A stretch of 64,000 bases of DNA from a virus (lineage: Duplodnaviria > Caudoviricetes). Position numbers and translations under genes: made by a program. The stretch spans positions 1,028 to 65,027 of the IMG/VR virus record IMGVR_UViG_3300033183_000145. One strand, 5' to 3'. Under the pieces are notes generated by a model. It saw nothing but the letters and a program-made list of their open reading frames with translations, ran no database searches and was not told the DNA's origin. Positions 4,077-56,144 of this stretch are shown one piece after another (position 1 is the stretch's first letter; each line of letters opens with the position of its first letter).

Positions 4077-7000
4077 TCTTCAGGAAAGTTAAAGGTAACG
4101 GCATCGTTAGCCCCCAGGAAGGTTTGCTGGTCGGCAGCTGGGTCAAACGTATTCCCAAACACGGTCAAGAACCTTAGCAAATCTTGAGTAGATATAGCCC
4201 CATCGTTGATGTTGGCGTTGAGTTCAGGATCATCAATTTGCCCAGGGCCAGCAGCCAAGTCAAATAGCTGTTCAGCACTAAACCTACTAAGTATTTCGGA
4301 CAGGTCTATAGTAACGCTATCTGGGTATACGTACTCCACAACCGTCTCGGTCGGCCCTCCGCCGCCGCCGCCAGTATCTCCAGTGCCCTCAAATGCGTTG
4401 TCACCACACGTGCCTTCTTGCGTGTTCTGATTATACACACTGAGGATGTAAGTGTCGTTGTATGGGTCATATCCGCCCACAACCTTGATCTCACCCATCC
4501 CAGCATCCCTATCAGCCTCCGCTTGTTCGAACAGCTTCTTAAAGTAGCTCTTCATGTTGATATCAGAAACTACTTGAATGCCGTTCGCAGGGTTGAACTT
4601 GTACACCTGCCTGTTGCTCTTGCTCGCGAAGTAAACAGTGTTCCCGATGTTGCACACAGATTCTGGGTTGTCGTCACACCCGTAGTTGCCAGCATAGTAT
4701 CTCTCAGTGCCAAGCACCTGTCTTGCAGCCACAAGAGTCTCAGAACCACCTCCGTCAGTAATAAGGTTTCTATTTACAGGGATAGAGCTGCATCTGTTTG
4801 ACTGAATGACGAATATTGAATCGTCATTGTTAATCATGTAGTTGATATCGCCAAACTCAGATGGCAAGTCCTTGAACTGTGCCTTCGCTGGGTTAAATGA
4901 TGTCAAAGACATGATCTTAGACATAGGGTTGTCCTTGTCTGAATACGTAATAGAAGCTGACTTTACAGATCGCTCAACATCTGGGAGAACAATCTTTGGC
5001 TTTCCCTTTGCCCATACATCAGAGTTTCTGACTTTGTCGCTAAATGATTGAGCTTCAATGTTGTATGGGAAAAAGTTTGGGCTAGATGACTCTTCTTCTA
5101 TAATAGATTCAAAGCTTCCAGACTTAACCTTCTGGAAATTGACTGGAGCTGTCTTCCACCAAACATCTCCGCCGCTAATTGTCTGAACACCTCCGAAATT
5201 GGAGATGTCATATGTTGGCCCAATCTCGTAGTACACGAGGCTTTCTTCGTCGGCGGAAAGTTTAGGCGAGTATATCTCTACGACGCACCTCTTGTTCCAG
5301 TTGTGTATGTTCGAGTTTGGGTCGTTTTCTCCATTAGCTACTTGATCGTATGTAAACCCAATGGCGTTCAAGTTATTTTCAAGAACCAAAAATGACCCAG
5401 TCTTAGCTTTGTGGGGTATGTTTCCGTCTTGGTCAACATCGTAAAGAGGATTGTCAGCCCCAGTAGAAAGGGTTACTTGATCGACGATGTTAAACTCATA
5501 ATCAGAATCTAAGAATATCCTAGACTCTCCAGATGGGTTTTCGTAATAAGATATTATACGAAGCCTGTCTCCATCTCGATATGTGTATATGTCGCTAGAT
5601 CCATCAAGACCTCTTGCCCCATAAGATTTAGCATAAGAGGCCGTGTCGTGCTGAAGGTAATTAAGGGAGACATATATGTTTCCAGAAGACTCATCAGAAT
5701 CTTGCGCCCCCACAAAAGCCCCGCCTACCGAGTACTGAACAAACCTAGACATGGTTGTGTTTCCGCTGTAAACGAACCTGAATTTTGTAGCACCACTCGG
5801 GGGTGTACCAGTAAGAGTTACGATAATATCTGAAACCTTTCCTTCAAAACCGTCTGTCCTGTCGCTAAACCAAGGAACGTAAACACTTCCTATTGGATTT
5901 ACATTAGAGCTTCGACCTCTTCCGTCATAAAAAACAACCCCAAAAGCATGGCTTGCTCCAGCTTTAAATGTTTGACCCCCACCAATTCCTGGGGGTATAA
6001 CTGACATCAATGCGTTTACCCCAGACGAGTTAGACAGCTGATTCTCATATCCAGTCGAACTACTTTCGTGTGGAAAGTCACCGAAGTAGAATGAACCGAC
6101 TCCGTACCAGCAATCGGAGTTGATGTGTGGGAGGTAGTCATAGTTGAATCCAGACTTAAGGTGAATAAACGGCATAGATGACGTAGCCTCAAGATTTTGA
6201 ATGGCAGAAGATGTTGCGCCGTAGTTACCTCTAGCTACGACAACTTCCGCTCCAGAGCTGTCATTCATTATAGCCGCTGGGCCTTTATAGTTAAACTCAT
6301 TCGCGGAGTTGCCTTCATTTGAATTAGTTGTGTAAGCAACCATTATATTGTTGCTCATGGCAGGACCATAGATGCCAGCCAGTGGTTCTCTTCTTGGGAC
6401 TACAGTGCTTTCAATGTCTCCGTCATCTAACCCGATAAGAACAGCACTTCCAACCTGACCTATTCCTCTCCCGTCGTCTTCGGCTCCAGGTCCATTGAGC
6501 CCAGGAAGCAAGTAGTTGTCGTAAAACGAGTTGTCGTCAACTCCTGATCCGCCTGGACCTCCTTTGCCGTCCATAAGCGAAAAAATAGAAGTGCCATTTA
6601 TGTTCTCACCCTCAAAAAACTTTACTTCTCTGCCGCTGGTTTCATAGATATTTACGTGTTGGTTTGAGTAAAACAAACCGCCTATAATGGTCTTCCATGG
6701 AGCTTCTATCCCAGGAAAGCTTTCTGAAGCCCTGAAAACGTTTTCTTCCCGCAGAATCCTCATGCCTTCTACAGGATGATCAAAAAACCCATAGGGCGTA
6801 TCAACTTCAGCCCCAAATGTTGGTATGGCATCCTGGGGGTAAGAGTTAAACTCTATGTTGTGAGACATACCCTTTGCGGCAAAGTCTGGATTGTTCTGAA
6901 GACCTCCAAAGTTGTTTCCCTCGTAGGAGAATGGGAAAAAGCTATACTCTCTGAAGTCCGCGTTTCCGAACAATACCGACTCGTTTACTGCTGGTATAGA

Positions 7001-9370
7001 ATCGTTGCCAGCAGCATTCCACGGAGCCAAGCAGTACCATCTTGCACCTGGAAGAGGGCGTCTTATGCAGGTCAGAACAGCTTCTTCGTCTACTGGAACG
7101 GTTATCTCTTTAACATATATGCCAAAACGGGCCCTTGGCTTGTCATTCGACTCAGACACAGTGACGGCTTCTCCTGGGCTGTACTGATTCTGAGCAAATT
7201 CTCTCTCTTCAAGGTATCCCTCATCTAAAAAGACGCCAAACTTGACCGTAGCTTTATTCAGTATAATGAATCCTTTTACTATGTCTGCTACGAGAGAGTT
7301 ATCTGCCTCTGGCCCTCGCCCTGCTTCCAAGAGTTGACCGACCGCTACACCATTGTCGACTCCATCTGGAGTAAATCTTGACCCAACTGTAGATATGAGC
7401 TTAGCGAGAGACGAGGTCTCCTTAAAGGAAGAACTGTTCCTCAGCCCAAGGTCCACCTCATACTGAAGCTCCTCATCGGCAGGATATGAAATGTTGTCCG
7501 CAAGGGTGGCCAACTCTGAGCCTTCTGATGCTTCTGCTCCAGAAATAATCAAAGATATAGCTCTTACCACTTGCTGCTTCGTCAAGTCTGAGGCAGCGAC
7601 AAAGGAACAGCGAACTGTAAAAGGCTTCCCCTGAACTATAAGAGGGTGTCCAGCACTGGTGCCAAGGCTAACGCCCTCAACCTCACCTATTCCAGCGCTC
7701 TCCGTCTCCATGTCGAAATACTTCCACTTGAATTTATCATCTGCGCCATAGGCTCCGTCCTCAAGGAAGCTTACCCCTACTCCCGTAGAGCAGATAGCTG
7801 GAACTCTTTTGAAAGCATCAAACTGTTCTCTAATGAAGTCGCCTCCTGACTTTTTCATACTCTGCCAGAACAGCCCCTTTGGGTGGCCCGTGACGGCGCT
7901 ATCTCCAAGTCCAGCGTTAACGACAGGATGTACACCAGCTGCCCAGTCATCTATCGTTCCTATGCCATTCTGACTAATGCCCTCTAGGGAAAAGTCTTCA
8001 CCCATTTGTGGGCTTTGGTGGTATGAACGTCTGGAGTTGTATACGTGAAAGTTTTGCTTTGGGCTTACTGTAAAACTAAACGATATGAAAGACCCCTGCT
8101 CCATTGTGTTGTCAAGCTGAGAGGCATCTATCGTAAAGCCCATGTTTTTATTTTGAGCGCCATCCTCTGGGTCCCAGGGGCCTGGAGATGGGCATGTAGA
8201 CGGCAAGACGTTAAGTTCATAGCTCTTGAAATCTGAAGGCCTTTCAGAGGGCGAAGGAACCATTGCAGAATCAATTTCTACGTTGTCGAACCCGCTTAAA
8301 TAATTACCGTAAACAAGCCTGTTGTCTATAATTGTCTGAGCCTCAACTCTGTACGGAACATCATCAAACTGTTTTGTCTGTACGTCAGAAGGAATAGCTG
8401 AGTTAACAGAGGTGTTCAGGAACCTATAAGATATAGGAGCGTCTTCATAGTCAAATTCATCAACCATAAACCAAGACCCAGAGTCGCCCCTTCTCGCTAA
8501 CAGCTTGACACTGTTTATTTCCGAAGACATGTCATCATTAGGTATGATGAGGTCTATAGCGTTTAGCTGATTTAGATAAGATACATCACTAGATCCTGTG
8601 TACCTCAAGTATCCAGGTGGCACAAATATGTTTGAGTAAGCAGATATTGCGCTTTCAGACCCATCAATGTATACGTTTTGATATGCAAACTGAAAGCCTT
8701 CAATTCCCAAAAACTCATTTGAGTTAAACGAAGTTTCATTCTCCCACCCTCCAGAGCTTGACTCAGTGTCAGAGGTTATGGGCGTTTGAGGAGTGTTGGC
8801 GCACACAAGAACAAAGTCGTAGTAACCGCTTCCGCTGGAGTCGTGGTCGCCTTCCATGGCTCGGAGTACGTTAATCTTCTTTGGTTGAGACTGATTGTCT
8901 GTAAAGAAAATAAACGGCACATCCTCGTAAAGCGTCTCGTCTTCTGTTATGTAGTTTCTCTGGATATACGTAATGTCGGCCTTTACAAAGGCGTCAATAC
9001 CGTAAGTGAGAAGAGTTGAAGTGAAGACCTTCTTAATCCCATTCTTTTCAGCGCCTCCAGGAAGGTACCCATCAGGGTCGTAAGCATAAATACCGTTTGG
9101 TCCGTCCTCTTCATAAACGAAGAAATAGATGACGTTGTACTTATCGCACATCACCTTTCCGACCACGGTCTTGTTCGTTCCAGTAAACGAAGAATACCCT
9201 TCATTAAGAGGTGTGTTGGACTTCAGCGGCTTCAGTACGCCAGCATTTCCTCCACCACCTCTAGTGTCCTCCGATGTGTTGATGTTGATTGCATCAGACA
9301 TCTCATCTGGACCGAGCAGTCTTGAATCAGCGGACTTGTTCAGCTTTCTTGGATACCTCTTTTCAATCAT
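4073..9370 (-). CDS. Tail stabilization / muzzle-like protein (crAss-like, P22 gp10-like)
   Basis: 1765 aa. N-terminal LNKSADSRL...DAININ, FFTDN..PKKIN, FQFAYQ..Y.DG.ESA, NRLVYGNY, FKAGASHAFGVVFYD.RGRSS and YGC.DNPES motifs are typical of this family. Confidence 0.75.
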   Translation of the reverse strand: MIEKRYPRKLNKSADSRLLGPDEMSDAININTSEDTRGGGGNAGVLKPLKSNTPLNEGYSSFTGTNKTVVGKVMCDKYNVIYFFVYEEDGPNGIYAYDPDGYLPGGAEKNGIKKVFTSTLLTYGIDAFVKADITYIQRNYITEDETLYEDVPFIFFTDNQSQPKKINVLRAMEGDHDSSGSGYYDFVLVCANTPQTPITSDTESSSGGWENETSFNSNEFLGIEGFQFAYQNVYIDGSESAISAYSNIFVPPGYLRYTGSSDVSYLNQLNAIDLIIPNDDMSSEINSVKLLARRGDSGSWFMVDEFDYEDAPISYRFLNTSVNSAIPSDVQTKQFDDVPYRVEAQTIIDNRLVYGNYLSGFDNVEIDSAMVPSPSERPSDFKSYELNVLPSTCPSPGPWDPEDGAQNKNMGFTIDASQLDNTMEQGSFISFSFTVSPKQNFHVYNSRRSYHQSPQMGEDFSLEGISQNGIGTIDDWAAGVHPVVNAGLGDSAVTGHPKGLFWQSMKKSGGDFIREQFDAFKRVPAICSTGVGVSFLEDGAYGADDKFKWKYFDMETESAGIGEVEGVSLGTSAGHPLIVQGKPFTVRCSFVAASDLTKQQVVRAISLIISGAEASEGSELATLADNISYPADEELQYEVDLGLRNSSSFKETSSLAKLISTVGSRFTPDGVDNGVAVGQLLEAGRGPEADNSLVADIVKGFIILNKATVKFGVFLDEGYLEEREFAQNQYSPGEAVTVSESNDKPRARFGIYVKEITVPVDEEAVLTCIRRPLPGARWYCLAPWNAAGNDSIPAVNESVLFGNADFREYSFFPFSYEGNNFGGLQNNPDFAAKGMSHNIEFNSYPQDAIPTFGAEVDTPYGFFDHPVEGMRILREENVFRASESFPGIEAPWKTIIGGLFYSNQHVNIYETSGREVKFFEGENINGTSIFSLMDGKGGPGGSGVDDNSFYDNYLLPGLNGPGAEDDGRGIGQVGSAVLIGLDDGDIESTVVPRREPLAGIYGPAMSNNIMVAYTTNSNEGNSANEFNYKGPAAIMNDSSGAEVVVARGNYGATSSAIQNLEATSSMPFIHLKSGFNYDYLPHINSDCWYGVGSFYFGDFPHESSSTGYENQLSNSSGVNALMSVIPPGIGGGQTFKAGASHAFGVVFYDGRGRSSNVNPIGSVYVPWFSDRTDGFEGKVSDIIVTLTGTPPSGATKFRFVYSGNTTMSRFVQYSVGGAFVGAQDSDESSGNIYVSLNYLQHDTASYAKSYGARGLDGSSDIYTYRDGDRLRIISYYENPSGESRIFLDSDYEFNIVDQVTLSTGADNPLYDVDQDGNIPHKAKTGSFLVLENNLNAIGFTYDQVANGENDPNSNIHNWNKRCVVEIYSPKLSADEESLVYYEIGPTYDISNFGGVQTISGGDVWWKTAPVNFQKVKSGSFESIIEEESSSPNFFPYNIEAQSFSDKVRNSDVWAKGKPKIVLPDVERSVKSASITYSDKDNPMSKIMSLTSFNPAKAQFKDLPSEFGDINYMINNDDSIFVIQSNRCSSIPVNRNLITDGGGSETLVAARQVLGTERYYAGNYGCDDNPESVCNIGNTVYFASKSNRQVYKFNPANGIQVVSDINMKSYFKKLFEQAEADRDAGMGEIKVVGGYDPYNDTYILSVYNQNTQEGTCGDNAFEGTGDTGGGGGGPTETVVEYVYPDSVTIDLSEILSRFSAEQLFDLAAGPGQIDDPELNANINDGAISTQDLLRFLTVFGNTFDPAADQQTFLGANDAVTFNFPEE

Positions 9371-18339: not shown

Positions 18340-18639
18340 TTAGCAGCGGCATCTCCACTTACGCAGAGCTTTGTTGATTCTTGAGTTAGGGTCTCTAGCT
18401 GTCTTGGCGCTAGTAAGCCTTTTCTTCATTCCGCACATGCGAGAACAGAAGGACTTTCTTCTACCAGCTCTTTTACCTTTGGGGTTTGATTCCGTGACAG
18501 CAGTCTTAAGCTTGCTTCCAGGGTTGGCTCTGCGGTACGCAGCAACACCCTTAGCCGTGAGCCCACCAGATCTGCTCTTGTGAACCCCCATCTTCATTTT
18601 GGGCATTACGGCCTTGCGCTTCTTCTTGACTTTAGGCAT
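18340..18639 (-). CDS. Small basic protein (DUF6321-like)
   Basis: GGLTAKGVAAYRRANPGSKLK...RRKSFCSRM...DPNSRINKALRKW; TATATTTG at 18644-18651. Confidence 0.65.
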   Translation of the reverse strand: MPKVKKKRKAVMPKMKMGVHKSRSGGLTAKGVAAYRRANPGSKLKTAVTESNPKGKRAGRRKSFCSRMCGMKKRLTSAKTARDPNSRINKALRKWRCRC

Positions 18640-28722: not shown

Positions 28723-28737
28723 GTTAATTCAATTTAG

Positions 28738-28811
28738 TACGCCCGCCAGGATTCGAACCTGGGACCGTTTGCTTAGAAGGCAAATGCTCTATCCAGCTGA
28801 GCTACGGGCGC
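28738..28811 (-). tRNA. tRNA-Arg (anticodon UCU)
   Basis: Full cloverleaf: GCGCCCG acceptor, TAGCTCAGCTGGATAGAGC D-arm, TTTGC-CTTCTAA-GCAAA, GGTTCGAATCC; CCA not encoded. Confidence 0.95.
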
Positions 28812-29212: not shown

Positions 29213-29230
29213 TGCTTTAGATTTAATTTG

Positions 29231-29304
29231 TTGGGGCGGTGGGACTTGAACCCACGACTTCCTGTGTATAAGACAGACGCTCTAACCAACTGAACTACGC
29301 CCCA
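29231..29304 (-). tRNA. tRNA-Ile (anticodon UAU)
   Basis: Cloverleaf: TGGGGCG acceptor, TAGTTCAGTTGGTTAGAGC, TCTGT-CTTATAC-ACAGG, GGTTCAAGTCC. Confidence 0.9.
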
Positions 29305-50112: not shown

Positions 50113-52005
50113 ATGAGTTATAACCCAGAGTTAATTCCCTGGGGCGAGGTCGGCTACGCTACTTACAAGCGGACCTATGCACGCCCTATCAAAGATCGAA
50201 CAGAGGAGTGGGAAGAGACAGTTGATCGCGTAATCGAGGCGTGCAACAAACAGTTGAAGTGCGACTTCAACGAAAAAGATCAAGCAGACATCAAGCGCAT
50301 GATGATGCAGCTCAAGGGTACCGTCGCTGGACGATTCCTTTGGCAGCTCGGGACAAAGACAGTGGATCGCCTTGGCCTCCCGTCCCTTCAGAATTGTGCG
50401 TTCGTTGTTGTGGACGAACCGATAAGGCCTTTTACTTGGGCGTTTGAGATGCTCATGCTTGGCAGTGGAGTTGGATTCAACATCCAGCGTGAACATGTGT
50501 ACCAGCTCCCTAAGATCAAGAAGAAAGTCAACGTCAAGCACGTAGAGGACCACGGCGCAGACTTCATTGTCCCCGACTCTCGTGAGGGGTGGACAGACCT
50601 TTTGCATCGTGTCCTTGAAGCTTCGTTCGTAACGGGACAGGGGTTCACCTATGACACCTCTTTGGTGCGTCCAGCTGGCGCTCCTATCAAGGGATTCGGC
50701 GGGACGGCAAGCGGACCAAACGATTTGATCTGGGGGATGAACGAAATCAACCGCATCCTCAATGAGCGAAGTGGTAAGCGCCTCCGTCCAATCGACTGCT
50801 TGGACATCATGAACATCATTGGCAAGATCGTCGTGGCTGGTAACGTCCGTCGGTCTGCACAAATTGCAATCGGAGACCATGACGACATCGAATACTTGCG
50901 AGCAAAGCGCTGGGACCTCGGGGGCATCCCCAACTGGCGAGCCATGTCCAACAACTCAGTCGCATGCGACGACATTTCTCTCCTCCCTGAGGAGTTTTGG
51001 GAGGGGTATAAAGGAAATGGCGAACCTTATGGGCTTATTAACCTTGAAGCCTCGCGTCGTATGGGAAGGACAGGTGACACTATGCACCCTGACCCAGACG
51101 TCATGGGGTACAACCCGTGTGCGGAACAGAGTCTTGCTCCATTTGAGACCTGTTGTCTCGCCGAGATCTATCTACCGAATATTGAGACGGAGAGAGAGCT
51201 CAAAGATGTTGCTGCACTCCTATACCGTATCAATAAGCATAGCTTGGCGATCAAGTGTGCGGTTCCCGAAACTGAGGACATCGTTCACAAGAACATGCGT
51301 ATGGGGATTGGTGTAACTGGTTATCTTCAGGCTACAGAAGAGCAGCGTAGCTGGCTCTCATCTGTATACACTCACCTTCGAGCCTATGACCAAGAGTACT
51401 CTAGACTTTGCGGATTTCCGACATCTATTAAACTTACAACTGTTAAGCCCAGTGGAACGTTGTCTCTACTTGCTGGCGTTACACCAGGAGCACATCCAGG
51501 GTATTCGCAGTACTACATTCGACGAATTAGAATGGCTGCAGATAGTGAGTTGGTCGGCGTGTGCCGAGACAATGGGTATCACGTAGAATATGTCAGGAAT
51601 TTTGACGGAACGGAGGATCACTCTACCGTTGTTGTCAGCTTCCCATGTTCTTTCCCTGAAGGCACGACTTTTGCTCATAACATGACTGCTGTAGACCAGT
51701 TGGAAGTCATTAAGCGATTGCAGGCTGAGTGGTCGGATAACTCTGTGTCAGTAACTATCTACTATCGCAAGGAGGAGCTTGACGCCATTAGAGAGTGGTT
51801 AAATGAGAACTACATCAACGTCAAGTCAGTATCGTTCTTGCTCCACAACGAGCACGGATTTGATCAGGCTCCTATGGAGGAGATCTCTCACGAAGAGTGG
51901 ATGAAGATGTCGAAGGAGGTTACTCCGATCACCAGCCTCACTCAGCTGAACATGGAGGACATCGACATTGCGGATTGTGAAGGTGGTGCATGTCCAGTAC
52001 GATGA
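50113..52005 (+). CDS. nrdJ: Class II (adenosylcobalamin-dependent) ribonucleotide reductase
   Basis: TYKRTYAR, AGR.LW, LQNC, VVAGNVRRSA, GYNPCAEQ, TTVKPSGT, C-terminal CEGGACPVR; no beta-subunit gene present. Confidence 0.92.
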   Translation: MSYNPELIPWGEVGYATYKRTYARPIKDRTEEWEETVDRVIEACNKQLKCDFNEKDQADIKRMMMQLKGTVAGRFLWQLGTKTVDRLGLPSLQNCAFVVVDEPIRPFTWAFEMLMLGSGVGFNIQREHVYQLPKIKKKVNVKHVEDHGADFIVPDSREGWTDLLHRVLEASFVTGQGFTYDTSLVRPAGAPIKGFGGTASGPNDLIWGMNEINRILNERSGKRLRPIDCLDIMNIIGKIVVAGNVRRSAQIAIGDHDDIEYLRAKRWDLGGIPNWRAMSNNSVACDDISLLPEEFWEGYKGNGEPYGLINLEASRRMGRTGDTMHPDPDVMGYNPCAEQSLAPFETCCLAEIYLPNIETERELKDVAALLYRINKHSLAIKCAVPETEDIVHKNMRMGIGVTGYLQATEEQRSWLSSVYTHLRAYDQEYSRLCGFPTSIKLTTVKPSGTLSLLAGVTPGAHPGYSQYYIRRIRMAADSELVGVCRDNGYHVEYVRNFDGTEDHSTVVVSFPCSFPEGTTFAHNMTAVDQLEVIKRLQAEWSDNSVSVTIYYRKEELDAIREWLNENYINVKSVSFLLHNEHGFDQAPMEEISHEEWMKMSKEVTPITSLTQLNMEDIDIADCEGGACPVR

Positions 52006-52092
52006 AAAGGATTGACCAATGCTGGATTTCCCAAATGTACTATCTTAGTAACGTTACACGGGTTAGTTGACTGTGGAACTTCGCAATCTGTG

Positions 52093-52128
52093 GAGGGGGG
52101 CTTACATAAGTTCCCCTCTTCTCTTTTT
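52093..52128 (+). terminator. Intrinsic terminator after nrdJ
   Basis: GAGGGGGGCTTA-CA-TAAGTTCCCCTC followed by a T-rich tract. Confidence 0.6.
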
Positions 52129-52130
52129 CG

Positions 52131-52138
52131 TACCTTTG
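52131..52138 (+). promoter_or_regulatory. Bacteroidota sigma-A -7 element (TACCTTTG)
   Basis: Exact TAnnTTTG, 7 nt before the protease ATG. Confidence 0.6.
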
Positions 52139-52145
52139 GGGGTGA

Positions 52146-54044
52146 ATGAAAACCTTTATCACTACCCTCCTACTGGCAATTACCTTTTCGAGCATAGCTC
52201 AAGAGTGTAGCCTCTTAGTGCCTGATAACGTGAAAGTTATGGGCATGAGTCGAACTGATGTTAACCTCGCAGAGGTTGATACAGTGGTACTACCCATTGT
52301 GTTCCATATCGTGCACACTGGGGCTGGCGAAGAAAACAACATCTCCGACGAACAAATCATGTCGCAGGTCGATGTTTTGAATGATGAGTTCGCTGACAGT
52401 AAGATTCAGTTCTGTATGGCCGTGCGAGATCCTGAAGGCAACCCAACCAACGGCATCACTCGCACCGATTACAGCTGGAACAAGGAGTATGTAGCCAATG
52501 GTATCAGCAATGGCTCAGGTGGCGGAGCTGACCAGACACAAGTAAAGTCTGACGCGGGGTGTTGGAACCCTGAAGAGTACATCAACTTTTACGTGGTTAA
52601 CGAGATCAATGGGAATGACGGGGGATGGGGTATTCAGGGATTTGCTTACCTCGGACCTACTGGTGATTGCAGAGACGGTGTGGTGTGTCTGTACAACGTA
52701 ACGGGCAACATAGGTACGCTGAAGCCAGGTCGAGAGCTTGGGTTTACGGGGGTCCACGAGATGGGTCATCACCTTTCTCTTTGGCACACATTCTCTAACT
52801 CGAACGACTGCGTAGAGACGAACTGCGAGACTCAGGGTGATCAGGTATGCGACACTCCGCCAACCACCCCGAATGATATTGGGTGCGTTGCCGCAGATTG
52901 CCCCGACGCTTTGCTTGAGAACTTTATGGACTACACTCCCGAGACTTGTAGGGAGTCGTTTACTGTTGGTCAAGCTGAGCGTATGCACGAATGCTTGCAG
53001 ACTGTGAGGTCTGGCCTTCTCGACAACCTGTCCTGTGTGCCTATAGTAGACTACGACGCGACACCGCTAACAGCCTACTATCAGCAGACGTGGTGCACCC
53101 CAACTCAGGATATTTGGATCGACGTAGTAAACCAAGGAACGCTCCCTTTGGACGTCATCGAGGTGCAGCTCTACGTCAATGGAAACCAATACGCAGAATA
53201 CTTATACGACGTTCCTACTGGCACCCACGAAGTGTTGTTTGAGAACGTATATGTTGATGGAGCCCAGATGTTCGAGGTCCAAGTAGTTAGCTCCCTTGAT
53301 CAATATCAAGACAACGATTACTCTTGGTGGCCTATCGAGACTGTCTCTGGGGAGCTTATGAATATCACCGTAGGGACGGACAACTGGGCCAACGAAGTCG
53401 ACTGGGTGCTCTACGATGAGTTTGGGGAAATTGTAACTGGGGATGGGGACTATCCTTTTGGGGTGAATACATACGAGTATGAGGTATGCGTCTACGAGGG
53501 TTGCTATACCTTCGAGGCCACCGACACTAACGGAGATGGGATGTGTTCTTTGGACTTCGGTAACGATGGTATTTGCGACATTGGAGGGGATGGGATTACG
53601 GCCAGTGTTAATGGGAGTGTCATCTTCGCTACGGAGCAAACGGAGTACTCTCTCTTCGACACAACCTTCTGCTTCTCTATTGGGGATTGCCCTCTTGACT
53701 TTGACGGTAACGGAACCGTAGGCAATGGTGACGTGCTTGATATGATACTTGAGTACGGGTGTCAGTCTGGATGCCAGACGGACCCAAACAACGATGGTAT
53801 CGTAAACGTAATGGACCTACTCTACATGCTCACCAACTTGGGCGATTGCCCGCTTGAGCAAGACCTCTCTATAGGTATGCTTAAGGACGTAACCCTTGCC
53901 GCAGCATCGGCAGGAGGTGTTGGAAAAAATCCTCAGATCTACGACATGACGGGGCGGAGGGTTCGAGGCCCTGTGGAGTCCCTGGCCACGGGAGTCTACA
54001 TTCTGAAGTGGGAAAGTGTAACCAAGAAAGTATTTGTACAATGA
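52146..54044 (+). CDS. Secreted M43 (pappalysin/ulilysin-like) zinc metalloprotease with dockerin-like repeats and T9SS type A C-terminal signal
   Basis: Signal peptide ...SSIA-Q; LPIVFHIVH; HEMGHHLSLWH; GDQVCDTP; Met-turn NFMDY; D.DGNG.V...D repeats; IYDMTGR.V...GVYILK....KKVFVQ. Confidence 0.88.
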   Translation: MKTFITTLLLAITFSSIAQECSLLVPDNVKVMGMSRTDVNLAEVDTVVLPIVFHIVHTGAGEENNISDEQIMSQVDVLNDEFADSKIQFCMAVRDPEGNPTNGITRTDYSWNKEYVANGISNGSGGGADQTQVKSDAGCWNPEEYINFYVVNEINGNDGGWGIQGFAYLGPTGDCRDGVVCLYNVTGNIGTLKPGRELGFTGVHEMGHHLSLWHTFSNSNDCVETNCETQGDQVCDTPPTTPNDIGCVAADCPDALLENFMDYTPETCRESFTVGQAERMHECLQTVRSGLLDNLSCVPIVDYDATPLTAYYQQTWCTPTQDIWIDVVNQGTLPLDVIEVQLYVNGNQYAEYLYDVPTGTHEVLFENVYVDGAQMFEVQVVSSLDQYQDNDYSWWPIETVSGELMNITVGTDNWANEVDWVLYDEFGEIVTGDGDYPFGVNTYEYEVCVYEGCYTFEATDTNGDGMCSLDFGNDGICDIGGDGITASVNGSVIFATEQTEYSLFDTTFCFSIGDCPLDFDGNGTVGNGDVLDMILEYGCQSGCQTDPNNDGIVNVMDLLYMLTNLGDCPLEQDLSIGMLKDVTLAAASAGGVGKNPQIYDMTGRRVRGPVESLATGVYILKWESVTKKVFVQ

Positions 54045-55060
54045 GAGCGGTACTATTGTGGTTTCTGATTCCTGTTCTGTCCTATGGGCAGGGAATATGC
54101 GATATGGAGATCATAGGGTTTAACCCCATCTCCACGGATATAACAATCGCTATTAACGGAGGGTACTGCACGCCTGAGGCTGGGGATTCTATCGGTGAGT
54201 TCTTATTGTCTCTGGCATTTAATCCAGCGCTAGACGATAACGGAGACTGGGGGTGTATATACCCTAACGGATGGGCATACCTCATCTTCCCACTCAACTT
54301 CCCTGGTTTCGACATAGGCGAAGGAGCGGATCAGATACTCCAGACAGGGGATACTGTTTCTTTTACCCTCGATGAGATACCAACGTTTGGAAGCGGAACA
54401 GCGGCATGCTGGATAGACATCATGCAAAGCGGAGCATACTATGAAGAGTGCCTTGTTCTTACTGTGTGGCAAATCAACGATAGTCACCCACTTGACGGAA
54501 GCAACACTGGACTAGGTGGATTCCCATACCCTGATGCCAACATCTTCAATTCGTGGATTATGTGGAGCCTTAATGGAGCGTGCGATCCACCACCTCCCCC
54601 TATCGTATACGGGTGTACAGATATGTTTGCGTACAACTACAACTTCGCTGCTTCGCAGGATGACGGAACGTGCGTATATCAGGGGTGTCAAGACCCTCTG
54701 GCACTTAACTATTGCGAGGAGTGTGAAGTAGAAGGGCCATGTATCTATGAGCCTCCAGGAGGTGAGGATTGCAGCGATCCACTGATCTTTATAGCAAACA
54801 CCTTTAGTCCCAACAACGATGGTCTTAACGACTACTGGAAGGTCGTTACAAGGGCAGAGTGCTGGCTCACATGGGAGCTCAGGATCTACAATAGATGGGG
54901 CACGCTCGTATGGATGAGCTACGACCCAGACGCTAAATGGATAGGGGAAAGGCTTGATGCCTTTGTCCCTGACGGTGTATACACCTGGGCTCTCAAGGCC
55001 AAAACTTATGAATCAACGAAGGTTGTGGACATGGCTGGCCACGTCACCATATTCAGGTAG
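54041..55060 (+). CDS. Secreted protein with gliding-motility-associated (T9SS type B, CHU_C) C-terminal domain
   Basis: Signal peptide ...LSYG-Q; GCTD..AYNYN..A..DDGTC repeat; NTFSPNNDGLND.W...IYNRWG...W.G...DGVY.W......G.VTIFR. Confidence 0.88.
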   Translation: MRAVLLWFLIPVLSYGQGICDMEIIGFNPISTDITIAINGGYCTPEAGDSIGEFLLSLAFNPALDDNGDWGCIYPNGWAYLIFPLNFPGFDIGEGADQILQTGDTVSFTLDEIPTFGSGTAACWIDIMQSGAYYEECLVLTVWQINDSHPLDGSNTGLGGFPYPDANIFNSWIMWSLNGACDPPPPPIVYGCTDMFAYNYNFAASQDDGTCVYQGCQDPLALNYCEECEVEGPCIYEPPGGEDCSDPLIFIANTFSPNNDGLNDYWKVVTRAECWLTWELRIYNRWGTLVWMSYDPDAKWIGERLDAFVPDGVYTWALKAKTYESTKVVDMAGHVTIFR

Positions 55061-55429
55061 TCAGGGCTGCTCTATCGTGTTAGCCTGCTGAACTTCGTAG
55101 ACCTTATTTTGGATCTCGTTAAAAGGAGTTCCGAGTCTAAAGCTTATGTCTGCAACGTATTGCCACGCAGGTCTATCTCCATTGTATATCACAACAACGG
55201 GGACTGCTGTAACGCTAGTCTTAATTGACTCTGGTTGGTCCTCAAGCCAGCCGAATTTATAGTTGCAACCACGCAGTTCCTCAAGGTCTCTTCGGGTGTG
55301 GTTCTCGTTCCATTCAGCATTGATCTGAACCACCGTAACCTGCTCTTCTGGGAGAGAGTTAAGCTTTACTGCAGCTCCAGTTCCAAGTGCGCCAGCTGCA
55401 AGCGCCAAAATAGCAATAGTCTTGTTCAT
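55061..55429 (-). CDS. Exported thioredoxin-like-fold protein lacking CxxC
   Basis: Hydrophobic N-terminus; VVQINAEWN...VTAVPVVVIYNG. Confidence 0.5.
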   Translation of the reverse strand: MNKTIAILALAAGALGTGAAVKLNSLPEEQVTVVQINAEWNENHTRRDLEELRGCNYKFGWLEDQPESIKTSVTAVPVVVIYNGDRPAWQYVADISFRLGTPFNEIQNKVYEVQQANTIEQP

Positions 55430-55707
55430 CAGTCCTGAGTACTTAATTCATAGAGCCTTTGTTCAATCAAATCCAGCTTCTCTCCATTCTCCTCCACTTG
55501 CTCCTGAGTGTTCATGATGGTTTCTCTTATGAGTTGGTCCTTAAGATCGTATTCTGTTCTAGACACCTCTGGCTTAGGAAGCTTTTTAGCTAACTCAATG
55601 TCAGCCTGCAACGCAAACCACATCCCGCATAGCGAAATTACAAAAGAAATAATAACCACTATGGTTTTGATGTCGAGAGTGAACTCGGTCTTGTCGTCAA
55701 GCTTCAT
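55429..55707 (-). CDS. Single-TM coiled-coil membrane protein (lysis cluster)
   Basis: IVVIISFVISLCGMWFAL followed by a coiled coil. Confidence 0.55.
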   Translation of the reverse strand: MKLDDKTEFTLDIKTIVVIISFVISLCGMWFALQADIELAKKLPKPEVSRTEYDLKDQLIRETIMNTQEQVEENGEKLDLIEQRLYELSTQD

Positions 55708-56144
55708 TTTTTGGACTTTTCGAGGGTTCTTCCAGCAAAGTATGCGCCAAAAGATGTTAGCATAAGAATCTCCAGCAAAGATACATAACTTTCCTTCACG
55801 TTAAAGGGCAGGTAATCAAGCGAGTCCAGCACCATGGTCACCATGAACATGGCCATGAGAGCGATCAAAGTCACTGGTCTGATGTACTTTGCGAGCTTGA
55901 CGTCGCTCCCCATATCAGCCTTCCATCTTTCAGTTACATTGTTCTGATAGGCTATCTCTGCGTCAAGGACTGCCTTGGCTTCTGCAGGGTCTACACTATC
56001 ATCATTATCGAGAAGGTTCTTCACTATCCCGAGAGCTCCCTGATCTGGCAAAAGATCACCCACTGTATCCAATACACTAGGCGCTTTATCTTTTAGCCAC
56101 TTGCCAAGGTTGGTGTCTTTGATCTTATTTTCTTGCTTGCTCAT
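55704..56144 (-). CDS. Putative holin (GTA 3TM-holin-like)
   Basis: VTERWKADM.SD..L.K.IRP, two TM segments, FGAYFAGRTLEK. Confidence 0.7.
   Translation of the reverse strand: MSKQENKIKDTNLGKWLKDKAPSVLDTVGDLLPDQGALGIVKNLLDNDDSVDPAEAKAVLDAEIAYQNNVTERWKADMGSDVKLAKYIRPVTLIALMAMFMVTMVLDSLDYLPFNVKESYVSLLEILMLTSFGAYFAGRTLEKSKK

Follow-up and report, generated by a model that had tools for sequence, protein, structure and literature searches.

We analysed a pair of adjacent genes, A and B, carried by a marine phage (Duplodnaviria, Caudoviricetes) of the IMG/VR collection (IMGVR_UViG_3300033183_000145). The source record comprises 65,027 bases and is rated 100% complete by CheckV; its bases 1028-65027, a stretch of 64,000 nucleotides, are hereafter called the window. 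Both genes lie on the + strand and overlap as ATGA, the ATG of gene B being superimposed on the TGA of gene A. Gene A encodes a predicted M43B metalloprotease, and gene B a protein ending in a type B C-terminal sorting domain (CTD) of a type IX secretion system (T9SS). A sequence-only reading had described the locus as two T9SS cargo genes, a protease with a type A CTD and a protein with a type B CTD, placed behind a terminator and a host-type promoter. The unit of two open reading frames (ORFs), the intact protease domain, the type B CTD, the Sec signal peptides ending before Gln and the upstream terminator were all recovered in our analysis, as were the phage context, the lack of a PorP/SprF partner gene and the likely Bacteroidota host; the type A CTD and the host-type promoter were not. 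The features of the two genes are as follows.

52146-54044, + strand: gene A, exported M43B metalloprotease of 632 amino acids (aa), as predicted from the ORF, the family model, the AlphaFold2 (AF2) model and Foldseek
52146-52199, + strand: signal peptide of gene A, residues 1-18 (inspection, conservation, N-terminal helix in the model)
52539-52997, + strand: M43 catalytic Pfam match, residues 132-284 (zinc motif, 52755-52787; Met-turn, 52920-52934)
53058-53675, + strand: two beta-sandwich domains of gene A, residues ~305-510 (AF2 model, Foldseek)
53676-53846, + strand: Cys-bracketed, dockerin-like double calcium-loop module of gene A, residues 511-567 (weak matches below cut-off)
53928-54041, + strand: near-invariant C-terminal tail of gene A, residues ~595-632 (profile comparisons)
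54041-55060, + strand: gene B, encoding a type B CTD protein of the T9SS with 339 aa counted from the ATG (ORF, family models, AF2 model)
54041-54088, + strand: signal peptide of gene B, residues 1-16 (inspection, conservation)
54089-54583, + strand: N-terminal beta-rich domain of gene B, residues 17-181, of no known family (profile and fold searches)
54584-54787, + strand: Pro-rich linker of gene B, then Cys-bracketed repeats of ~22 aa (alignment)
54788-55057, + strand: type B (CHU_C) C-terminal sorting domain of gene B (PF13585, TIGR04131, fold)

The extreme C-terminus of the gene B protein matched PF13585 (CHU_C) with 59.7 bits (cut-off 27; profile positions 2-78 of 86) and TIGR04131 with 39.9 bits (cut-off 35; profile positions 3-84 of 85). 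In the AF2 model, which has a mean predicted local distance difference test score (pLDDT) of 85.9, residues 243-339 were best matched by the CTD of PorZ (Z 8.6, root-mean-square deviation [rmsd] 3.1, 88 aligned residues) and by the CTD of NucA in the SprA complex (Z 8.5, rmsd 2.3, 74 aligned residues); the CTDs of FspA, RemA (SprA complex), PorU, mirolase and RgpB gave Z scores of 7.0-7.9. As Z scores of 7-8 are common among beta-sandwiches, the fold match supports the assignment but falls short of proof. Together, the family models and the modelled fold identify the gene B product as a genuine type B CTD protein.

The region between the leader and the linker belongs to no known family. Pfam recognised a family in 0 of 19 members of the N-domain, apart from two weak PKD matches at E 0.058; PDB sequences contained no relative (best E 0.69) and the ESM Atlas no match. 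Foldseek and VIA matches across this domain turned out to be multi-domain alignments with rmsd values of 13-25 and were discarded. The N-domain profile retrieved only 35 representative clusters among 1.84 billion proteins, always right behind the leader, and CHU_C above its cut-off ends all of the 15 full-length representatives. When prokaryotes were scanned with one genome per species, at least 552 relatives of gene B were found, and in the best 80 of these the match lay within residues 191-339 (mostly 242-339) and never in the N-domain, an absence that this short-pattern scan leaves unproven. The number of the Cys-bracketed repeats (form GC.D..A.NY....DG.C, ~22 residues) differs between homologs of gene B.

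Larger phage-borne proteins (619-822 aa) ending in CHU_C are present in loci L170, L174, L175 and L178 (L numbers designate our loci), and two of them, from L170 and L174, also match the N-domain of gene B. L170, a viral contig of 169 kb, carries two CHU_C genes in tandem at 5501-8244. Two records of uncultured phages of ~640 kb match the CTD region of gene B.

The catalytic domain of gene A matched PF05572 (Peptidase_M43) with 64 bits (cut-off 23) over residues 132-284. It contains the zinc motif HEMGHHLSLWH at residues 204-214 and the Met-turn NFMDY at residues 259-263. A search of 8000 scored candidates yielded 592 relatives of protein A at E<=0.001; the best 120 of these share 49-88% identity with it, are near full-length, and originate from marine-type sources, their contigs reaching ~66 kb; all 120 keep both the zinc motif and the Met-turn. 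The family profile found ulilysin (E 9e-42), mirolysin (E 1e-37) and also PAPP-A proteins. The AF2 model has a mean pLDDT of 71.9, residues 213-270 being poorly modelled (below 50), and was matched by Foldseek to the mirolysin and ulilysin structures 6r7w, 3lum and 2cki with E values of ~1e-12, 30-32% identity and template modelling (TM) scores of 0.62-0.65 (target-normalised). The TIGR03952 equivalog scored 44 bits against a cut-off of 208, which places gene A outside that lipoprotein subfamily. By these sequence criteria gene A is an intact M43B (pappalysin-type) zinc protease, with predicted activity.

The catalytic fold and motifs of gene A are thus common to the unicellular pappalysins (MEROPS M43B: ulilysin, Tannerella forsythia mirolysin and cytophagalysin). 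Ulilysin and mirolysin, the latter T9SS cargo itself, are the nearest relatives of gene A with a solved structure. Gene A differs from the unicellular pappalysins in being phage-encoded, in continuing behind the catalytic domain with two beta domains, a dockerin-like module and no more than an apparent CTD remnant, and in its translational coupling to a type B CTD gene. Mirolysin is a secretory protease whose latency depends on a cysteine switch at Cys23 of its profragment (PMC8259862, PMC6949598). In gene A, residue C21 may by analogy with mirolysin Cys23 be the corresponding latency residue, a candidate cysteine switch; the pro-segment gave no alignment to the pro-ulilysin or pro-mirolysin chains of solved zymogens.

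Downstream of the catalytic domain, the first beta domain is CARDB-like (Foldseek match 3idu), and both beta domains are common to the bacterial homologs. By inspection, residues 511-567 comprise two repeats of a calcium loop followed by a helix; this module scored 11-16 bits against Dockerin_1 (PF00404), missing the cut-off of 22.9, and its EF-hand matches were also below cut-off. Many matches to the module were found in Flavobacteriales genomes. The Cys-bracketed dockerin-like motif is very common among ORFs of metagenome-assembled genomes (MAGs) of marine Flavobacteriales (loci L243 and L266-L270). The motif may itself be a sorting or docking module.

The type A CTD that had been assigned to the protease did not hold up. 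The tail reached 15.1-16.8 bits against PF18962 (cut-off 27) and 15.3-17.2 bits against TIGR04183 (cut-off 23), and matched the type A CTD profile only at positions 24-72, its second half. None of the tails of 12 relatives passed these models either, 8 of the 12 scoring 12.4-17 bits. The ~38 residues of the tail are almost invariant in homologs while the remainder of the protein drops to 50% identity. When the tail was compared by hhalign with 29 true type A CTDs drawn from two Flavobacteriales genomes, the match had a probability of 96.5% (E 7e-10); it included the D-x-x-G-R loop and the last strands but spanned 30 columns only, the first ~21 (the YPNP part) and an 11-residue stretch being missing. 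Against 177,635 PDB sequences, the tail profile placed the RgpB CTD in four of its top five matches, with weak E values of 0.08-0.44. A type A CTD whose structure has been solved forms a compact sandwich of seven strands and is reported to be essential for secretion (PMC11285876). The tail of gene A was modelled as three short strands (pLDDT 50-59), and the complete seven-strand sandwich of ~70-80 residues is not present in it. Among the 120 best homologs, 95 have the tail, 22 lack it and 3 are fragments; the 22 tail-less proteins (554-590 aa) stop right behind the dockerin-like module. By sequence comparison the tail is probably a truncated type A CTD, and it is dispensable in part of the family. 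Because the curated models failed and the tail is shortened, and absent in 22 of 120 homologs, we do not file the protease as type A cargo, although it may still use the remaining piece of the T9SS signal. Of the two proteins read as T9SS cargo, that of gene B matches the curated CTD models and the protease does not.

Both proteins start with a predicted Sec signal peptide. By inspection, the leader of gene B, MRAVLLWFLIPVLSYG|QG, would be cut at G16|Q17, and it forms an N-terminal helix in the model; Q..CD follows the leader directly in 92 of 95 gene B homologs. The leader of gene A would be cut at A18|Q19, and the next residues, E20-C21, are nearly invariant. Many invariant cysteines, typical of exported proteins, occur in the gene B protein, and the gene A protein likewise has a conserved N-terminus and many invariant Cys. 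Gln behind the leader fits the Q-rule of Bacteroidetes (PMC5837995). Phage proteins that follow this rule were noted earlier in Porphyromonas gingivalis phages, in a report whose passages on these proteins draw no link to the T9SS (PMC10367356). PorP/SprF (PF11751) was absent at E<=1 from the whole 65,027-base record. Orphan type B cargoes can share one host shuttle (PMC12618676), and gene B likewise has no adjacent shuttle gene, so that the missing shuttle gene is not strictly disqualifying.

The genomic context is that of a phage. The portal, the large terminase and several virion proteins are encoded in the window along with a holin and an M15 endolysin; further genes encode a GroES-like protein, a primase-helicase, a class II-type ribonucleotide reductase (RNR) and a protein of 2616 aa. 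Family searches among the phage's genes found no tyrosine integrase or resolvase, which fits a virulent phage without proving it. Judged by the primase-helicase, the nearest cultured relative is Maribacter phage Panino (35% identity), with weaker matches to phages of Cellulophaga, Flavobacterium, Nonlabens and Tenacibaculum, all hosts belonging to the Flavobacteriia; the relatives of the gene B CTD, for the best 80 of at least 552, are nearly all in Bacteroidota records. As the nearest cultured phages infect Maribacter, Cellulophaga and Flavobacterium and the CTD relatives are in Bacteroidota, the host is likely a member of the Bacteroidota, a marine Flavobacteriales-type bacterium being favoured.

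Among 50,697 GenBank phage records, a collection that may omit records close to the window's own genome, none matched at the DNA level; one record matched the M43 protein (31.5% identity, 39% of the query covered) and five matched gene B, none of them with 80% coverage. The possibility that the segment is an assembly artefact or host DNA wrongly joined to the phage, which the sequence-only reading had itself raised as a chimeric insert, found no support beyond the fact that the protease does have cellular homologs. The junctions between the reductase gene and A, between A and B, and between B and the next gene are all bridged by contigs of four public runs from four studies that are 85-99% alike, which shows that the segment is not mis-joined; base composition is even throughout the cassette region; dozens of viral contigs, 40-66 kb in length, carry the pair; and the phage M43 proteins separate from 35 bacterial ones (see below). 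We consider such an artefact vanishingly improbable. The public sequencing runs listed as holding the sequence included no RNA run, and all the DNA runs had small shares.

The sequence-only reading had proposed following the distribution of the pair among related phages, and many viral contigs indeed contain the pair. The M43 gene seeded 26 viral loci, of which 6 end inside gene A; in all 20 with downstream DNA gene B is directly next. For protein B, 100 relatives were found, and 95 are near full-length (33-94% identity). In 77 viral loci seeded with gene B, gene A lies just upstream in 50, a full gene B occurs without gene A in 20, five match the CTD or a part only, and two have no upstream DNA. 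A seems to need B, whereas B does not need A; as gene B occurs without the protease in 20 loci, the two proteins need not act as a pair. Relative to the closest relatives, dN was 0.05-0.11 and dS above 1.3 or saturated, so that dN/dS is at most ~0.1 for both genes. The pair is under strong purifying selection, which indicates that the genes are functional.

The two genes do not vary in step. Identity to the window is 87% for A and 64% for B in L002, and 63% for A and 83% for B in L109; distances of the M43 catalytic domain and of the gene B N-domain correlate weakly (r 0.32). These independently varying identities and the low r value point to recombination between A and B. Distances of the dockerin-like module correlate with those of gene B (r 0.63-0.68) and with those of its own catalytic domain (r 0.63), and as DNA adjacency explains this equally well, we do not take the correlation as evidence of binding.

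In the window, gene A starts 140 bases past the reductase gene, at the end of the replication module, and gene B faces, in convergent orientation, a giant gene and three small ones (122 aa, 92 aa and the holin). Elsewhere the position of the cassette shifts:

Window and close kin: cassette between replication genes (RNR) and holin
L167 (same phage family): cassette between GroES and terminase
L125: cassette after the holin, convergent with the reductase
L113 and L134 (other phage types): cassette behind tail-like genes, amidase endolysin just downstream
L129 (other phage type): divergent amidase gene just upstream
L171 (same phage family): B alone, without M43, between a class I reductase and the holin
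Subgroup of ~41% identity (Pfam applied to L147): B without A, preceded by an M15 endolysin and a small membrane protein

With its shifting genome position, variable presence and putative signals of its own, the pair is an accessory, moron-like cassette. In the window's own GroES/terminase interval, the one that the cassette occupies in L167, lie two - strand tRNA genes, tRNA-Arg(TCT) at 28737-28811 and tRNA-Ile(TAT) at 29230-29304; in some other contigs the cassette is located directly 3' of a tRNA-like sequence.

The frequent lysis-gene neighbours keep a lysis-linked role viable. The protease might stay in the periplasm, where it could for instance cut ties between the outer membrane and the wall, and the gene B protein might engage the T9SS or the outer membrane, the two aiding outer-membrane breakdown or the timing of release. 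Consistent with this, lysis genes adjoin the cassette or gene B in six contexts: an amidase lies just downstream (L113, L134) or just upstream (L129) of the cassette, the cassette follows a holin (L125) or is convergent with one (the window), and gene B alone follows an M15 endolysin and a small membrane protein (the L147 group). Moreover, the gene A tail is not a full CTD and is missing from 22 of 120 homologs, and short bacterial homologs have no CTD by our local model. However, the neighbourhood of lysis genes is a common site of accessory genes in phages, the L167 pair lies between GroES and terminase, away from a holin, and the window is already equipped with a holin, downstream of which two small envelope proteins are encoded; nor do we know of any link between type B CTD proteins and lysis. 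We judge this role to be distinctly unlikely.

A further possibility is a place in the virion or its assembly, for example as a fibre-associated, depolymerase-like protease. The pair lies behind large tail-like genes in L113, L134 and L136, and part of a structural virion protein from a Synechococcus phage is similar to the Cys-bracketed gene B repeats (55% over 40 aa). On the other hand, the Sec leaders disfavour a virion role: in both proteins the leader followed by Gln is conserved and many cysteines are invariant. Neither protein matched a PHROG family at E<=0.001, and in the window the pair is at the end of the replication module. A virion role is therefore very improbable in our view.

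Relatives of the protease are common among Flavobacteriales. M43 relatives at E<=1e-20 were present in 206 of 301 sampled genomes, from the order of a Flavobacteriales MAG; the best of the bacterial relatives share 42-46% identity over residues ~43-495, one of them spanning residues 30-569. In two long Flavobacteriales homologs (1379 and 1449 aa) M43 occurs together with PKD, SprB repeats (six or seven) and a complete PF18962 CTD (33.4 and 48 bits); by these sequence scores they are true T9SS cargo. One Cys-bracketed dockerin-like motif terminates each of the short homologs (583-616 aa), which come from genomes of 2.1-2.4 Mb, have no CTD by the local model and resemble the tail-less phage form; beside three of these short genes, local profiles found no gene resembling gene B or its N-domain.

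A phylogeny against host homologs, another check that had been suggested, was run as a quick maximum-likelihood M43 tree with 19 rows from the phage family and 35 from bacteria, after removal of 2 of 56 rows whose matches were short. The bacterial rows were top matches only, the root was placed at midpoint, and the phage label of metagenome proteins was assumed from family membership and contig size. All phage rows fell on one side of a branch with an SH-aLRT (Shimodaira-Hasegawa-like approximate likelihood ratio test) support of 100, the 35 bacterial rows being opposite, and the phage clade adjoins a group of 10 rows from small-genome Flavobacteriales (SH-aLRT 99). The simplest reading of this tree is a single capture from small-genome Flavobacteriales-type hosts.

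The cellular homologs also suggest that the cassette might serve nutrient acquisition: an extracellular protease and a surface scaffold would digest dissolved or particulate protein and the amino acids would feed the production of virions, receptors being unaffected. The homologs are large secreted Flavobacteriales M43 proteins, found in most of the sampled genomes, the catalytic machinery of the phage enzyme is fully kept, and added enzymatic capability was one of the options offered for phage T9SS cargo described earlier (PMC7468147). Yet gene B stands alone at 20 of the 77 loci, its N-domain cannot be placed in an enzyme-like or known binding family, no partner genes for transport or peptide cleavage were seen in the window, and a payoff inside one lytic cycle would be uncertain. 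For these reasons nutrient acquisition appears unlikely.

The reading that we favour, and that we hold to be nearly, though not quite, probable from sequence and models, is that this cassette of a virulent marine Flavobacteriales-type phage sends two proteins to the host envelope and alters the surface proteins there. Display of the gene B protein by the T9SS is the best reading of the data; the route of the protease and the biological role of the pair we infer. Both proteins would leave the cytoplasm by their Sec leaders, cut before Gln in the Bacteroidota pattern. The gene B protein would pass the outer membrane via the host T9SS and would be held on the surface by a host PorP/SprF-like shuttle, like orphan type B cargo in Flavobacterium johnsoniae, its phage-specific N-domain pointing outward. 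The protease would leave in zymogen form, with the conserved Cys21 right behind the leader as the block. It could follow either of two routes: the apparent type A CTD remnant would be read by the T9SS, or the protease would dock to, or ride on, the gene B protein or another surface partner via its dockerin-like module. The pair would then mask or cleave proteins on the surface of the infected cell; removal of receptors or adhesins would be the likeliest benefit, with superinfection exclusion, fewer progeny lost on debris, or detachment as the outcome. The sequence-only reading had also named grazing defence and nutrition as possible roles.

Several observations weigh against this proposal. On the side of the protease these are the TIGR04183 score below cut-off, the 30-column alignment that lacks the YPNP part, the three poorly modelled strands where a solved type A CTD has a full sandwich reportedly required for secretion, and the homologs that end behind the dockerin-like module. 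On the side of the pair they are the 20 loci in which gene B stands without gene A, the weak correlation between the two proteins and the frequent location of the cassette beside lysis genes. Finally, type B CTD motifs alone are insufficient for recognition by the shuttle (PMC12618676).

A bolder form of the proposal, which we regard as rather unlikely, is that the phage-only type B cargo occupies the PorP/SprF-type shuttle of the host and displaces host adhesins, that it serves as surface dock or as carrier for the tag-poor protease, and that together they strip receptors. If true, this would amount to T9SS-based superinfection exclusion and to a first case of piggy-back T9SS export, in a large clade of marine phages.

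In Flavobacteria, key organisms in the breakdown of marine organic matter, the T9SS and the surface proteins of gliding are major phage receptors and fitness traits. If the cargo is fed into the host T9SS, the cassette would give phages a novel means of reprogramming the cell surface. Gene B would offer a small natural unit of passenger plus type B CTD for studies of shuttle recognition, and full, shortened and absent CTDs on one protease would form a natural series for the minimal T9SS signal. The cassette would also be a strong marker of the host phylum for uncultured marine phages.

Accessory exported proteins that change the surface of infected or lysogenic cells are familiar from bor and lom of phage lambda and Llp of T5, which are lipoproteins or beta-barrels using general export. 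The cassette likewise consists of accessory genes with signals of their own and exported products. To our knowledge, no moron or exclusion protein of the bor, lom or Llp kind uses the T9SS or is paired with a protease. Compared with T9SS type B cargo, gene B likewise has a full CHU_C/TIGR04131 domain at the extreme C-terminus behind a Sec leader; it differs in coming from a phage genome without any PorP/SprF and in its small (~165 aa), rare passenger. Surface anchoring of type B cargo by binding to a PorP-like protein is a published model (PMC9143113). The closest precedent is 'Cryophage', a glacier phage with three type A CTD genes, encoding glycoside hydrolases and a PA14 protein in variable accessory regions; Bellas et al. 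(2020) called this phage T9SS cargo 'unique' and proposed a hijack of the host T9SS with a role in competition or superinfection (PMC7468147). Our cassette differs from it in its type B tag, in a protease with a degenerate tail, and in the conservation of the pair over many marine viral contigs. A paper on the crAssphage BACON domain also mentions the T9SS (PMC6949934). In a literature search of a limited collection, no report of phage-encoded type B cargo or of such a protease pair was found; phage T9SS cargo had been reported once, of type A only, and the type B tag and the protease pair are new here. The description of a phage-borne, T9SS-directed cassette was largely right, the cassette being genuine and conserved and the type A label too strong.

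The region upstream of gene A contains four further elements.

52041-52048, + strand: first -7-like box, TATCTTAG (TATCTTTG in most relatives), preceding the RNA-like element (sequence, alignment of relatives)
52053-52091, + strand: near-invariant 39-nucleotide (nt) element, conserved in 7 of 9 aligned loci and found in 21 viral contigs
52092-52129, + strand: terminator-like hairpin (52092-52119, 12 pairs), then a T-rich run (alignment of relatives)
52131-52138, + strand: second -7-like box, TACCTTTG, 7 nt 5' of the protease ATG (sequence, recurrence in relatives)

The stem sequence of the hairpin differs among relatives and the pairing is maintained; with the T run behind it, the hairpin is, on sequence grounds, a good intrinsic terminator. 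Of the host-type promoter that had been proposed, only the -7-like box was recovered. The motif TACCTTTG, which we take to fit the -7 box of Bacteroidota promoters, recurs just 5' of the M43 start in relatives, other genome contexts included; taken alone, it would be common by chance. The bipartite pattern TTTG-N17-21-TAnnTTTG, our assumed consensus, had no match at 52131-52138 and one elsewhere in the window, a number equalled by 49 of 100 shuffles, and a sigma-70 scan was not above shuffles. With 7 nt between the box and the ATG, a message from this box would be almost leaderless.

The stretch at 52041-52129, between the reductase and protease genes, is better conserved as DNA than the flanking genes. 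In the 21 viral contigs with the 39-nt element, the next gene is mostly the M43 gene; three have another protein with a leader followed by Gln, and five have no ORF. One metagenome contig fuses the element directly to the gene 5' of the reductase gene, which is skipped. Rfam had no match within 51900-52250 at E<=10, and as the 5' stem of the element is invariant, it provides no covariation evidence. From their sequence, the element and the hairpin together could form an RNA of ~75 nt, a candidate phage small RNA or leader.

Two small - strand genes at 55061-56144, downstream of the holin (phrog_3427), encode proteins of 92 aa and 122 aa without family matches. The former has one membrane helix and a charged, coil-like tail, and the latter a start resembling a signal peptide; judged by these features they may be spanin-like lysis partners. 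At 18340-18639 (- strand), a 99-aa ORF consists of a stand-alone DUF6321 domain (72 bits), which in eight PHROG families forms the C-terminal end of longer phage proteins.

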